Notes: generated by a model not told the origin, from the sequence alone. Counted from the stretch's first letter, positions 31,950 through 34,685 are shown. The stretch is 48,569 nt of DNA from an uncultured Bacteroidales bacterium (GCA_964293155.1 CAXYYA010000028.1:1-48569); one strand, 5' to 3'. Numbers and translations are program-made.

Positions 31950-33305
31950 TCAAAGTTTAAACCCTTTCAGATGTTCCGGTGTAACCTCCTGTTGTACAAT
32001 GGATTCCACGGTTTCGCTTTTGCGAATAAGATGCACTTTCCCCGTGGTATCAATCATGACCACATTGGGACGTAGCGTAATGAATTGCATCCATTGTGTC
32101 ATGTTGTAAGCGCCCACTTCGTGCACCACCACGCGGTCGTCCTTTTTTAACAGCGGTAAGCTAACGCTTTCGCGCAGGCAGTCAATGTTCATGCAAAGCG
32201 GCCCGTACAGCGCCATTTCTTCGGCATGCTGTGTGAAATCCTGCGCTGGCGATACTTTGTGATTGTACCAAAACGATGTGAACATGATATTTACCCCGAT
32301 ATCGAGCACGGTAGCCCGACGGCCGTTGGCCAGGCGTTTGGTTGCAAGCACGGAACCGAGCAGATAACCCGCTTCGTCAATCAATGCGCGTCCGGTTTCG
32401 AGGATCAGCAAGGGCAATTCATCGGGTTTAAAGCCGAATTGCAAAATGGTTCCGGTGATGGCTTCGGCATAATCGTCGAACGTAGGAATAACATCAGCAC
32501 CTTGCAGATACGAACCTTTGAGTGTGTTGGACGAACAGAATCCGCCACCCATATCAATGTATTTTATCTTTACGCCGGTTTTGTTTGCCGTATTTTGCGC
32601 CAGTTCGCACAGTTTGCGCGCCGCAACGGCATAAGCGTTGGCGGTGAGCATGTAGGTGCCGATGTGGGTGTGTAATCCTTCCAACTGAAGGTTTGGCTGC
32701 GTAATGATCTTCATGATCGCATTCCACGCCTGCCCGCTTTCGTAGTTGAAGCCGAACCTGTCCCACTGCGGATAAACGCCGGTGTCCATATTTACGCGAA
32801 TGGCAACACGCGCTTTTTGTGAAGTTCCTTCCAAAATCTCGATAAGCGAATAGAGCTCGTCGAAATGATCAATGTGGATGAGCGAACGGTTTTCCACGGC
32901 TATTTTCAGGTCATCGGCCGATTTATCAGGGCCGTTGAAAATGATCAGATTGCCCGGAACGCCGTTGCGAAGGGCTTTTTGGTATTCAAAACCCGATACG
33001 ACTTCCGCCCAGCTTCCTTCCTGATGGAAAACGTTGCAAACGGCATCCAGATAGTTGGTTTTGTAGCTCCAGGCGAATTGCACTTTCGGATAGCGCATTT
33101 TAAAGGCTTTTTGTGCTTTTTGATAGGTTTGGCGGATGGTTTTTTCGCTGATTACGAAGAGCGGCGAGCCGTATTCATCCATTAACCCGGCAACTGCCAC
33201 GCCATCAATTTGTTTCACAGGTATGTATTCGGTTCTGCTGCCGAATTTATTCATCAGGTTTGTGTTCAGTTTCTGAATCACAGGACGTTCGTAGGTTGGT
33301 TTCAT
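31950..33305 (-). CDS. Type-III-fold PLP-dependent decarboxylase (Orn/DAP/Arg decarboxylase family)
   Basis: 451 aa with a PLP-Lys context (FAWSYKTNY), a phosphate-binding YIDMGGGF, a C-terminal GPLCMNIDCL (GPxCxSxD-like), and HEVGAYN. Confidence 0.8.
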   Translation of the reverse strand: MKPTYERPVIQKLNTNLMNKFGSRTEYIPVKQIDGVAVAGLMDEYGSPLFVISEKTIRQTYQKAQKAFKMRYPKVQFAWSYKTNYLDAVCNVFHQEGSWAEVVSGFEYQKALRNGVPGNLIIFNGPDKSADDLKIAVENRSLIHIDHFDELYSLIEILEGTSQKARVAIRVNMDTGVYPQWDRFGFNYESGQAWNAIMKIITQPNLQLEGLHTHIGTYMLTANAYAVAARKLCELAQNTANKTGVKIKYIDMGGGFCSSNTLKGSYLQGADVIPTFDDYAEAITGTILQFGFKPDELPLLILETGRALIDEAGYLLGSVLATKRLANGRRATVLDIGVNIMFTSFWYNHKVSPAQDFTQHAEEMALYGPLCMNIDCLRESVSLPLLKKDDRVVVHEVGAYNMTQWMQFITLRPNVVMIDTTGKVHLIRKSETVESIVQQEVTPEHLKGFKL

Positions 33306-33391
33306 ATTGCCTTTGACCCCTGTAGTGGGATTTATTTAGTTATTATGAGCGTCCGACGGCTTGAAGTCCGTCTGACGCATATTTCAGACGG

Positions 33392-34447
33392 TTATCGAGC
33401 ATATTCCCCTGTTGTGGAAATCTGCTGAAATTCCGATATATCCACGATCATATCGTACGCGTAGCGGATAAATATTTTGCCGCTTTCGTACTCCGTGAAT
33501 GGTAGTACATCCTCGCTCAACGCCATTTTCACCAAAGCTTCGGCGTGATTTTGGCCGCAGCCGATAGCAAGGTACATCCAGGCGGGAAAACGGGGATTCA
33601 TTTCCAGCAGATAATATTCGTCTTTTTTTGTTTTGATAAACTCCAGTTCGCAACCGCCTTTCCATCGGCTGTTCTCAATTACGCGACGAGAAATCTCCAT
33701 GAGTTTATCGTCTTCCAACGAAACGCCCGACCATGCTTTTCCCTTGTCCGTGATGTACAATTTTCGCATCGGCACCGCGCCGATGCATCGGCCTTTTCCG
33801 TCGCCGATGGCGGTAACGTTTACTTCCGTTCCGGTTACAAACTCCTGGACGATAATGGGATATCCCCATTTGGCGACGATTTTGTAAAAATAAGAGCTGG
33901 CCTGCTCGTAGTTCGAAGCAATGTAGGCATCGTAGTATCGCCCTTTGATCACCATGGGATAATCGAGGTCATCTTCCAGTTTTTTAATTTCCGAAACCTG
34001 ATTAATGATATGGCTTTCCGGTACTTTTATATCGTATTTTTCGCCGAATTTATTCAGTTCCGATTTGTGGCGCTCTTCAAATTGCTCATGCGATGGCAGG
34101 AAAGTGGCTATCCCAAGCTCCGATTTTAATTCGTGTTGAATTTTGATGAAATTGTGCAATTCGGCATCAAAATTCGGGATGAGCACGTCAATTTTTTCCT
34201 GGCTCACGATGTATTGCAGCCGCTCTTTGAGCATGGCTGAGCCCGCGGTGGGCAAAGGCAGCTGATAGACTTTGTCCACCAATTCGTGCATATAAATTCC
34301 CGGTTCCAGCGTTTCGTACGATAAGCCGACAATGCGCACATCGAACGCCGAACTGTCTTTCAATGCACGAATAACGGGAATTCCCGGCCCGGGGCTGTCA
34401 ATGTTGTTGAGCCCAGTGACCGCTACGGTAATTTTTCGCTTATTCAT
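33392..34447 (-). CDS. ATP-grasp family ligase
   Basis: 351 aa with a pre-ATP-grasp N-domain, MVIKGRYYDAY, IIVQEFVTGTEVNV, and Mg-site ELEFIKTKKDEYYLLEMNPRF. Its start overlaps the upstream PqqD-like gene by 8 bp. Confidence 0.8.
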   Translation of the reverse strand: MNKRKITVAVTGLNNIDSPGPGIPVIRALKDSSAFDVRIVGLSYETLEPGIYMHELVDKVYQLPLPTAGSAMLKERLQYIVSQEKIDVLIPNFDAELHNFIKIQHELKSELGIATFLPSHEQFEERHKSELNKFGEKYDIKVPESHIINQVSEIKKLEDDLDYPMVIKGRYYDAYIASNYEQASSYFYKIVAKWGYPIIVQEFVTGTEVNVTAIGDGKGRCIGAVPMRKLYITDKGKAWSGVSLEDDKLMEISRRVIENSRWKGGCELEFIKTKKDEYYLLEMNPRFPAWMYLAIGCGQNHAEALVKMALSEDVLPFTEYESGKIFIRYAYDMIVDISEFQQISTTGEYAR

Positions 34448-34685
34448 TTTCGGATAGTTGGTAGCTTTTTAACATATCCAGAAAATCGTTGAGGTCTTTC
34501 TCGGCCGTGTGGGCATCGAGTTCGTATTCATCCTGAAGTGCTTTCAAAACGGTTTCGTTACTTTCACCGTTTTTTAATTGTTGAAGAACGAAAACGCCGG
34601 TTTGGTTTACACTGAAACTGTCGCCTGTAAGTGGATTAAAGATAAATCCGTTTTCGCTGATGGCTATGTTTTTTCTAATGTTCAT
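34440..34685 (-). CDS. PqqD-family (RiPP recognition element-like) small protein
   Basis: 81 aa. IAISENGFIFNPLTGDSFSVNQTGVFVLQQLKNGESNETVLKALQDEYELDAHTAEKDLNDFLDMLKSYQL fits the PqqD/RRE consensus of a winged helix after a 3-strand sheet, with a conserved EY(D/E)vd...DvxxFLxxL. Confidence 0.6.
   Translation of the reverse strand: MNIRKNIAISENGFIFNPLTGDSFSVNQTGVFVLQQLKNGESNETVLKALQDEYELDAHTAEKDLNDFLDMLKSYQLSENE

Follow-up and report, generated by a model that had tools for sequence, protein, structure and literature searches.

A conserved six-gene cassette of Bacteroidota built around a PqqD-like protein, an ATP-grasp ligase, and a fold-type-III decarboxylase

What is the substrate of a small protein from a peptide-binding family, an ATP-grasp ligase, and an amino acid decarboxylase that are encoded side by side with no peptide gene among them? 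The question is raised by a 48,569-nucleotide stretch of DNA from an uncultured Bacteroidales bacterium (GCA_964293155.1 CAXYYA010000028.1:1-48569; the whole stretch is called the window below), on whose minus strand an earlier note, made from the sequence, had marked positions 31950-34685 as a coupled triad: a PqqD-like protein with the fold of a RiPP recognition element (RRE; RiPP, ribosomally synthesized peptide that is post-translationally modified), an ATP-grasp ligase, and a pyridoxal 5′-phosphate (PLP)-dependent decarboxylase. The note likened the set to butirosin biosynthesis, in which an amino acid is ligated to a carrier and then decarboxylated, and it put the PqqD-like protein in the position of the carrier. 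We find that the three genes are the enzyme core of a six-gene cassette, which further encodes a urea transporter-like (UT) domain fused to an M23 peptidase domain and two secreted tetratricopeptide repeat (TPR) proteins. The outline of the earlier interpretation was right, whereas the role given to the small protein was wrong and half of the system had been missed.

The three open reading frames (ORFs) are present on the minus strand exactly where they had been placed: the 81-aa PqqD-family protein (34440-34685), the ATP-grasp ligase of 351 aa (33392-34447), and the fold-type-III PLP decarboxylase of 451 aa (31950-33305). The first two overlap by 8 bp, as had been read (stop codon TAA, 34442-34440; start codon ATG, 34447-34445). 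Downstream on the same strand follow the UT-M23 inner-membrane protein (730 aa, 29678-31870), a secreted protein of 461 aa that combines TPRs with a beta-rich C-terminal part (28311-29696), and a secreted TPR protein of 204 aa (27709-28323). The gene for the 461-aa protein overlaps the UT-M23 gene by 19 bp, and that for the 204-aa protein overlaps the gene preceding it by 13 bp. The gap upstream of the PqqD gene is 34 bp.

A scan of one genome per species recovered a close relative of the ATP-grasp ligase in at least 568 species, and 80 loci from Bacteroidota and Kapaibacterium were kept for comparison, including a few whose metagenome-assembled genome titles name other taxa and were taken as mislabels. 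One carrier of the cassette is Petrimonas sulfuriphila DSM 16547 (L002). Wherever enough sequence was available, the ligase gene is preceded by a PqqD gene (78 of 78 loci) and followed by the decarboxylase gene (71 of 71); the UT-M23 gene is present in 61 of 63 such loci and the small TPR protein in 51 of 52. An arrangement kept to this degree is far beyond chance. The ligase and the decarboxylase have a median identity of 68% across the 80 loci and never fall below 63%; the medians for the other parts are 49% (PqqD), 40% (UT-M23), 42% (TPR), and 28% (461-aa protein). At least several hundred species carry the cassette and its flanking genes differ between lineages, which agrees with an accessory module better than with a universal gene.

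The small protein belongs to the PqqD/RRE family, as had been proposed: it matches PF05402 with an E value of 1.1e-12 and 48.6 bits (cutoff 23.4) over profile positions 4-66 of 67, and its homologues in the variant loci described below match the same profile. Its public record reads ‘PqqD family protein’ (MDD3787206.1). In a comparison with the curated PqqD subfamilies (lasso B1, PQQ PqqD, HPr-rel-A, ScmD, and WgkC) all scores lie below cutoff, the nearest being lasso_PqqD_Strm (45 against 70), PqqD_rel_X (25.4 against 35), and PQQ_PqqD (17.8 against 46). An alignment of 79 sequences shows that the best-conserved parts are the N-terminal strand region KNIAISExGFIFNPxTGDSFSxN and the EKDxxDF helix, which, going by other RREs, would form the canonical peptide groove. 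The acidic tail at the C-terminus differs in length between the sequences and ends in E, D, A, Q, G, N, or K, and no Lys is invariant. Neither Pfam nor NCBIfam detects a phosphopantetheine-binding (PP-binding) domain in the protein; only PqqD is matched. The carrier position assigned to it is thus not supported, as the phosphopantetheine-binding domain, a conserved C-terminal Glu, and an invariant Lys are all missing. A covalent carrier of the LysW type was likewise considered and rejected, since neither the C-terminal residue nor the candidate Lys positions are conserved. Judged by its sequence, the PqqD-like protein is probably a recognition or adaptor subunit of the ATP-grasp ligase rather than a covalent carrier.

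The assignment of the second protein as an ATP-grasp enzyme holds, with three Pfam ATP-grasp models above their cutoffs (ATPgrasp_Ter, CPSase_L_D2, and ATP-grasp_3). All NCBIfam matches are far below cutoff, and the PDB contains no close or informative sequence relative. An AlphaFold2 (AF2) model with a pLDDT of 87 adopts the ATP-grasp fold, and the closest folds are 2pn1 (an uncharacterized protein resembling carbamoyl phosphate synthetase), biotin carboxylases, the L-amino-acid ligases RizA and BL00235, PylC, and PurD/PurK. The model places the enzyme among the carboxylate-amine ligases, in an uncharacterized subfamily; no match to the RimK family or to graspetide ligases of the MdnB/MdnC type was found in Pfam and NCBIfam at E <= 0.01. 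The invariant motifs VTGLNNIDSPGPG, LEPGxYMH, and RKLYITDKGKAW sit in the least confidently modeled loops, a placement that would fit induced-fit binding of a partner, though this is only an inference from the model. Across the classes of Bacteroidota the ligase is 63-72% identical, and elsewhere it occurs in tandem, decarboxylase-fused, and PqqD-fused forms.

For the third protein, the predicted membership in the ornithine/diaminopimelate decarboxylase family was borne out by matches to Orn_Arg_deC_N (PF02784; 6e-33, 114.6 bits) and Orn_DAP_Arg_deC (PF00278; 3e-12, 47.1 bits). Its best PDB match is 7kh2 (FigC/FslC, an N-citrylornithine decarboxylase; 1.1e-54), followed by an archaeal diaminopimelate decarboxylase (DAPDC; 3e-43) and BtrK (7ru7/2j66; 3e-27). 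The residues of PLP chemistry are kept (Lys, Gly loop, Glu/Arg, and Cys), and SYKTNY, H.H.GT, GGGF, LE.GR, GPLC, and GAY are invariant across the variants, as is a family-specific loop, GPLCM(N/Q)(I/V)D (as in GPLCMNID), whose counterpart in DAPDC we take to be CESGD. An N-terminal motif, YERPxIxKLNTGxMNKFG, is also conserved. The protein represents a distinct subfamily near FigC/FslC and DAPDC, with FigC/FslC and not the housekeeping LysA as its closest relative. A nearly identical public protein (MDD3787208.1) is labeled ‘alanine racemase’, which is probably wrong, since by its profile matches as well as its structure matches the protein is an Orn/DAP/Arg-family decarboxylase.

These scores also bear on the plainest account of the locus, namely that a housekeeping lysA or polyamine decarboxylase gene happens to lie beside unrelated genes. 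The protein does reach 223.3 bits on the lysA model (TIGR01048), but the cutoff is 297.9, its closest solved relative is FigC (though the FslC model, NF041039, also gives only 217.6 against 500), and its substrate loop is unlike that of DAPDC. The gene order moreover holds in every one of the 71 loci that can be read and extends to four phyla, with fusions to the ATP-grasp ligase; the accessory-module distribution argues in the same direction, and the synteny seen in the 80 loci and the variants is not with a lysine or polyamine pathway. We consider this account effectively refuted.

The relatives of the decarboxylase suggest what kind of substrate it might take. FigC, SbnH, and AcsE have been grouped as citryl-amino-acid decarboxylases, and BtrK acts on Glu tethered to the carrier protein BtrI (PMC7857480); the substrates of all four are amino acids already joined through their side chains. 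The sequence of ligation followed by decarboxylation that had been put forward for the triad fits these nearest characterized relatives, FigC/FslC and then BtrK.

When 50%-identity representatives were searched exhaustively, 3,207 relatives of the ligase were returned at E <= 1e-3. Among the variant operons, those of L083, L092, and L094 (source names Methylomirabilota/Rokubacteria, Nitrospinota, and Terriglobales of the Acidobacteriota) encode a secreted TPR protein of ∼450 aa, PqqD, a tandem double ATP-grasp protein of ∼710 aa, the decarboxylase, and a fusion of a UT domain with a CobB-like sirtuin. Neighboring genes of these operons overlap, and a divergently transcribed histidine kinase and sigma54 response regulator adjoin. 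In L096 a long TPR protein is followed by a PqqD::ATP-grasp fusion, a second ATP-grasp-like protein, the decarboxylase, and a UT::sirtuin::GNAT protein, the GNAT part of which has EctA, the diaminobutyrate acetyltransferase, as its best, weak match. L085 and L086 carry PqqD followed by an 871-aa ATP-grasp::decarboxylase fusion, which is found on seven contigs, L090 and L091 carry the plain triad on short contigs, and L087 and L088 have the PqqD-like protein and the ATP-grasp ligase alone. PqqD and ATP-grasp thus form the minimal core, with the decarboxylase as the usual partner, even a fused one, and with the UT domain bearing a cytoplasmic amide-bond enzyme and the secreted TPR protein as usual accessories.

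The functional linkage claimed for the triad is therefore upheld by kept synteny, by the apparent translational coupling, by the ATP-grasp::decarboxylase fusion on seven contigs, and by the PqqD::ATP-grasp fusion on one. Because their genes can be fused, are invariably adjacent, and are equally highly conserved, the firmest inference to be drawn is that ligase and decarboxylase act on the same molecule. As the decarboxylase needs a free alpha-amino-acid end and its closest relatives use side-chain-ligated amino acids, ligation through the side chain would come first and decarboxylation second.

Two paralogues of the ligase (46-48% identity) occur with neither a decarboxylase nor a UT gene. One (L084, 8001-9056; 46% identity) stands alone after a 1263-aa protein, without PqqD; the other (L087, 7747-9047) pairs with an 85-aa PqqD-like protein after a protein with a type IX secretion system (T9SS) tail. 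At least one further context thus exists for the ligase family. In L085 a soluble protein of 637 aa (10670-12583), which matches no family significantly, stands where the UT-hydrolase would be, and a PAS hybrid histidine kinase follows it. The Kapaibacterium locus L081 encodes, directly upstream of PqqD, a secreted protein of 1014 aa (6696-9740) with three near-identical M23-containing repeats and a tail like a T9SS C-terminal sorting domain.

The fourth gene of the cassette takes the system to the membrane. In the UT-M23 protein a UT-like channel domain (residues ∼21-321) precedes an M23 domain predicted to be cytoplasmic (∼416-505) and a beta-rich C-terminal domain of ∼210 aa. The channel part matches PF03253 nearly from end to end (1.4e-44, 152.9 bits, profile positions 2-291 of 292; PDB 3k3f, 4ezc, and 8blo), and it scores 98.5 on the Yut equivalog model TIGR03441, for which the cutoff is 274.6; no urease genes are found among the conserved neighbors of the cassette. 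The M23 domain (PF01551) has the LytM fold with its H...D and HxH zinc ligands present. The ORF as called mechanically begins with TTG at 31870, and homologues begin at the position of an ATG at 31849 (MKQSLKSY...), which is probably the true start.

In the variants of other phyla the M23 domain gives way to an unrelated enzyme. The UT::sirtuin proteins (L083 11544-13217; L092 12487-14130; L094 12541-14256; L096 7233-9344, with GNAT) contain complete sirtuin domains with GAGxS, TQNxD, the catalytic His, and CxxC...CxxC; neither the UT::sirtuin nor the UT::sirtuin::GNAT architecture was found in the literature searched. In every UT-fusion variant found, the cytoplasmic domain fused to UT is an amide-bond enzyme. 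Because non-homologous amide-bond enzymes are swapped at the same UT position, cleavage or exchange of an amide at the membrane seems to be part of the pathway.

The remaining two proteins are secreted. That of 461 aa has a signal peptide, an N-terminal TPR region, a Gly-rich loop, and a beta-rich C-terminal part ending in ...LALQWNF; it gives weak TPR_2/TPR_1 matches in Pfam and faint matches to PgaA and CHU_0125, and has no sequence relative in the PDB. Judged from these features it is possibly an outer-membrane barrel. In 58 loci its position is filled by a gene for ∼434 aa, with an identity of 25-30% outside the family. The 204-aa protein, with an N-terminus like a signal peptide, matches TPR_2 at 1.6e-15 as well as related families; a few loci have the small TPR gene in another place, either upstream of PqqD or flanked by the decarboxylase and UT-M23 genes, and secreted TPR proteins also head the variant operons of other phyla. 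Together with the stress-type regulators described below, UT-M23 and the TPR proteins would turn a soluble tailoring triad into an envelope-associated system with an amide-cleaving step.

We then asked whether the cassette brings its own peptide. For the 80 loci, ORFs of 15-130 aa that lie clear of the known genes were clustered, within a stretch reaching 5 kb upstream and 9 kb downstream of the ATP-grasp gene. No short-ORF family occurs in more than 9 of the 80, and the recurrent ones look like alternative-frame shadows of neighboring genes. In the window, the gaps between genes (34, 86, and ∼80-100 nt) are too short, the 268-nt tail after the last gene holds no credible ORF, and no conserved short gene was seen in the variant operons inspected. 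The earlier statement that no precursor-like ORF lies near the triad is thus confirmed over a much larger set; a precursor that is very short or encoded in trans may nevertheless exist.

This result bears most directly on a classical RiPP pathway with its precursor elsewhere in the genome. Here the RRE would present a peptide to whose core carboxylate the ATP-grasp ligase adds an amino acid or diamine, the decarboxylase would make or trim the appendage, M23 would be the leader peptidase, and an amine-tailed peptide would go to the envelope. Such a pathway would accommodate an RRE coupled to a modifying enzyme, with its best, sub-threshold similarity to lasso-peptide B1, and the presence of a peptidase and an ATP-dependent amide-forming enzyme, formally as in lasso B1/B2/C; TPR proteins often bind peptides, and the proposal of the earlier note would be satisfied. 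Yet RiPP precursors are normally clustered with their enzymes, and no conserved short ORF is found in the 80 loci or the variants. A UT channel is an implausible peptide exporter, and neither an ATP-binding cassette (ABC) nor a major facilitator superfamily (MFS) exporter is present. An identity of 63-72% across classes is an unusual constraint on the ATP-grasp ligase and decarboxylase if they are enzymes of specialized metabolism, and the sirtuin that replaces M23 in other phyla cannot be a leader peptidase. On balance a RiPP pathway of this kind appears unlikely.

The reading that we prefer, tentatively and as one possibility rather than the probable answer, is a route of ligation, decarboxylation, and cleavage on an acceptor peptide or protein that is encoded elsewhere and is loaded, decarboxylated, and unloaded by the cassette. 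In a first step, the ATP-grasp ligase, to which the PqqD-like protein would be a recognition or adaptor subunit, would use ATP to form an amide or isopeptide bond between an amino acid side chain (the omega-amine of an Orn/Lys/DAP-type residue, or the omega-carboxyl of a Glu/Asp-type one) and the acceptor, for which a peptide or protein segment to which the RRE binds is the likeliest candidate. By analogy with its family, the FigC/BtrK-like decarboxylase would then remove the free alpha-carboxylate of the tethered amino acid and leave an amine. Lastly, as the domain fusions suggest, the channel-tethered cytoplasmic hydrolase (M23 in Bacteroidota, a CobB-like sirtuin with or without GNAT elsewhere) might cleave or remodel the amide; the outcome may be a small polar product that crosses the UT channel in the direction of the secreted TPR proteins, or it may be no more than a reversible modification. 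That the acceptor is a peptide or protein is suggested by the presence of an RRE, a peptidase, TPR partners, and a sirtuin of the protein type. The more specific scenario, in which loading onto a trans-encoded peptide or protein is guided by the RRE and, after decarboxylation, the tethered amidase either releases the product into the UT pore for periplasmic TPR partners or erases a reversible protein modification induced by envelope or metal stress, is doubtful as a whole.

Several points weigh against an acceptor of this kind or against single steps of the route. A small-molecule acceptor is suggested instead by the fold of the ligase, the likeness of the decarboxylase to FigC, a channel for small solutes, and the lack of a precursor. 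No acceptor gene has come to light as a conserved short ORF in or near the cassette (80 loci and variants), which is unusual for an RRE-dependent pathway, and in the AF2 model the ligase resembles small-molecule ligases rather than the known peptide-modifying ATP-grasp enzymes. The cytoplasmic side of the M23 domain is predicted from topology. Since the UT fusion is missing from two Bacteroidota loci (L072 and L077) and from the L085 variant, the hydrolase/channel step is not obligatory. To our knowledge, UT channels are known only for very small solutes, and an export role of the UT domain is therefore speculative. The order of the steps could be reversed, with decarboxylation supplying the amine for ligation. 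Finally, the in-frame PqqD::ATP-grasp fusion (P0221, L096) is seen on one contig only and has an odd linker of 45-55 aa, and it could therefore be an artefact of assembly or a frameshift.

When might the cassette be expressed? In the window it is preceded by a gene module for an extracytoplasmic function (ECF) sigma factor (37616-38161 (-); Sigma70_r2/r4_2), a single-pass anti-sigma candidate of 97 aa (37286-37579 (-)), and a periplasmic Metal_resist/CpxP-Spy-like protein (36718-37293 (-); PF13801). The same trio lies upstream of the cassette in ∼14 loci, and an analogous one, a sigma factor with a small transmembrane protein and a Metal_resist-LTXXQ protein, precedes it in a distant lineage of Bacteroidota (L058, L067, and L069), which suggests that the same kind of stress regulator has been recruited repeatedly; the stretch 36718-38161 is a probable clade-specific regulatory module. 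ECF module, an Asp/Cys-rich repeat protein, two DUF2202 genes, and cassette follow one another on the same strand, no gap between them exceeds 98 nt, and the whole may be a single transcription unit of 10.5 kb. Elsewhere the flanking genes vary by lineage and are mostly regulators: an AraC-family protein in 18 loci, a LytS-type kinase with LytTR in 10-13, and a hybrid histidine kinase in five. A guess that an AraC-type neighbor carries a heavy-metal-associated (HMA) domain found no Pfam support and was dropped. In three Chitinophagales loci, YHYH and SCO1/SenC genes lie upstream of the cassette. Because the flanking genes are mainly regulators, the surroundings point to an inducible function linked to envelope or metal stress, not a housekeeping one; the link to metals is only suggestive.

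These neighbors enter into a free small-molecule route, in which the ATP-grasp ligase joins two small metabolites (such as an organic or amino acid and a diamino or dicarboxylic amino acid), the decarboxylase trims the product, and PqqD is only structural or regulatory and binds no peptide; the product would be a metallophore, a polyamine-like amide, or a compatible solute that leaves or enters through the UT channel. Vibrioferrin biosynthesis (PvsA/PvsE) pairs an ATP-grasp enzyme with a DAPDC-like decarboxylase, and in rhizoferrin biosynthesis FigC likewise trims a conjugate in partnership with FigA. The absence of a precursor gene near the cassette speaks for this route, as do a ligase fold nearest L-amino-acid ligases, PylC, PurD, and biotin carboxylase, a decarboxylase nearest the siderophore enzyme FigC, a channel family for small polar solutes, the recurrent metal- or envelope-stress-type neighbors (Metal_resist/LTXXQ, SCO1/SenC, YHYH, and DUF2202), and the weak likeness of the L096 GNAT domain to EctA. 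Against it, every PqqD-family protein known to be characterized binds a peptide, and the groove-forming segments are the best conserved here; M23 enzymes and CobB-like sirtuins act as amidases on peptides or proteins; the conserved partners include secreted TPR proteins; and the cassette includes no synthetase for NRPS-independent siderophores (NIS; no IucA/IucC-type gene is among the conserved neighbors), TonB receptor, or metallophore-type transporter. We regard a free small-molecule route as questionable.

The envelope-stress regulators and LytS/LytTR that flank the cassette would also suit a remodeling of peptidoglycan precursors, with the decarboxylase acting on the free D-center of meso-DAP in a cytoplasmic stem-peptide precursor, the ligase branching its epsilon-amine, and M23 or the sirtuin trimming the branches under envelope-stress control. 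For each of the enzyme families a connection with stem-peptide position 3 is known: DAPDC ranks second among the relatives of the decarboxylase, and M23 enzymes hydrolyze bonds made by meso-DAP or by bridge residues. The enterococcal D-aspartate ligase is a precedent for the addition of a branch to the stem peptide. However, no known cell-wall pathway makes use of a PqqD-type RRE, the conserved neighbors include no mur, fem, or penicillin-binding genes, the CESGD loop of DAPDC is replaced, and the UT domain is left unexplained. This reading is pure analogy, and we consider it very improbable. A known anti-phage defense system was rejected as well: no cassette protein matches the PADLOC defense models, and the UT-SIR2 variant gives only a marginal SIR2 match (E ∼2e-3).

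Further features of the window were recorded around the cassette. The repeat protein mentioned above (187 aa, 36124-36687 (-)) is secreted and contains four copies of FVD(A/K)(D/N)K(D/N)G(I/V)CDNFENGTP, with one Cys per repeat. The spacers between them are rich in Gly and Arg (GRGQGxGxGLRNGRG), and the motif is similar to DxDxDG repeats that bind calcium or metals. The gene accompanies the ECF module in ∼9 related loci but is no general companion of the cassette. The two tandem DUF2202 genes (rubrerythrin/ferritin-like, with signal peptides; 34720-36025 (-)) lie directly upstream of PqqD, with gaps of 4 and 34 nt, and are found there only in the closest relatives. Directly downstream of the cassette lies a second pair of an ECF sigma factor and a FecR-type anti-sigma factor (25692-27440 (-)), the FecR-like protein having a long, charged, low-complexity C-terminal tail. 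Upstream, a FemAB-family protein (39661-40782 (-); PF02388, 1.3e-42) adjoins an Mfa-like fimbrillin with DUF6359 (38321-39664 (+)), and a TonB-dependent receptor lies further upstream (40873-43191); FemAB, fimbrillin, and receptor are not conserved beside the cassette in other genomes.

The spacer between the ATP-grasp and decarboxylase genes (33306-33391) is 86 nt long, not 87 as had been counted, and the hairpin reported in it is present at its start (33368-33391 (-), read from the sequence), with an 8-bp stem and an 8-nt loop, CCGTCTGA-N8-TCAGACGG. The predicted RNA fold of the spacer is modest (-24.7 kcal/mol, z of -2.5 against shuffled sequence). No T-run follows the hairpin, which is therefore not a canonical intrinsic terminator, and scans for promoters and terminators in the region do not rise above background. 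As the spacer ranges from an overlap to ∼240 nt in homologues, the hairpin is not a conserved part of the system. On these grounds a role as a defined regulatory element was rejected. An Rfam scan at E <= 1 returned no family in 27000-38500.

At least several hundred species of Bacteroidota, and variants in three further phyla, carry the cassette under public names that are generic or wrong; its decarboxylase subfamily should be annotated neither as LysA nor as alanine racemase. Its parts, among them a recognition protein of the RiPP type, a decarboxylase like FigC and BtrK, an ATP-grasp ligase of a new subfamily, and a UT-like channel fused to cytoplasmic amide-cleaving enzymes, are not described together in the full-text literature searched; two RiPP papers in which PqqD or ATP-grasp is named do not deal with this combination. 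Solving the cassette could reveal a carrier- or peptide-based route to an amine product, the use of an RRE outside RiPP clusters, and a new function of bacterial UT proteins, and a route to its induction is offered by the regulators linked to it, which are of the ECF sigma/CpxP-like, LytS/LytTR, and sigma54 kinds.

The cassette shares parts of its logic with several known systems. Butirosin BtrI/BtrJ/BtrK likewise unites an ATP-grasp enzyme and a fold-type-III PLP decarboxylase in side-chain ligation followed by decarboxylation, and BtrK is a detectable homologue. In place of an acyl carrier protein, which is absent from the conserved neighbors, the cassette has a PqqD-type winged helix; it lacks aminoglycoside genes, BtrK is a more distant relative of its decarboxylase than FigC and DAPDC are, and it adds the UT-hydrolase and TPR proteins. 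The rhizoferrin enzymes FigA/FigC (FslA/FslC), together with SbnH and AcsE, include the closest solved relative and also decarboxylate after side-chain ligation, but the ligase of the cassette is an ATP-grasp enzyme and not an NIS synthetase, the FslC score is far below cutoff, a PqqD-like protein is present, and no siderophore transporter or receptor is conserved. In the amino-group carrier protein system LysW/LysX/LysK an ATP-grasp enzyme loads a small protein, the substrate is transformed, and a metallohydrolase releases it, a formal scheme to which the cassette is similar. Its ATP-grasp ligase, with L-amino-acid ligases, biotin carboxylases, and PurD as fold neighbors, is not of the RimK/LysX type, however; its small protein has the PqqD fold rather than the LysW zinc ribbon and lacks a conserved C-terminal Glu, and as hydrolase it has M23 or a sirtuin in place of M20.

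RRE-dependent RiPP pathways (lasso B1/B2/C, PqqD/PqqE, and graspetides) resemble the cassette in coupling a discrete RRE to a modifying enzyme and in having an amide-forming enzyme and a peptidase in one operon. The cassette differs from them in that it has no precursor in cis, scores below cutoff for the curated PqqD subfamilies, uses an ATP-grasp ligase unrelated to those of microviridins and graspetides, and adds a PLP decarboxylase and a UT channel. The urea transporters Yut and dvUT match the N-terminal ∼300 residues of UT-M23 over the full length of the family, whereas the UT domain of the cassette scores below the equivalog cutoff, is fused to cytoplasmic M23, SIR2, or SIR2-GNAT domains, and has no urease neighbors. 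Taken together, the cassette belongs with the ligase/decarboxylase pathways that act on tethered or conjugated amino acids, and there is a real chance that it represents a categorically new kind.

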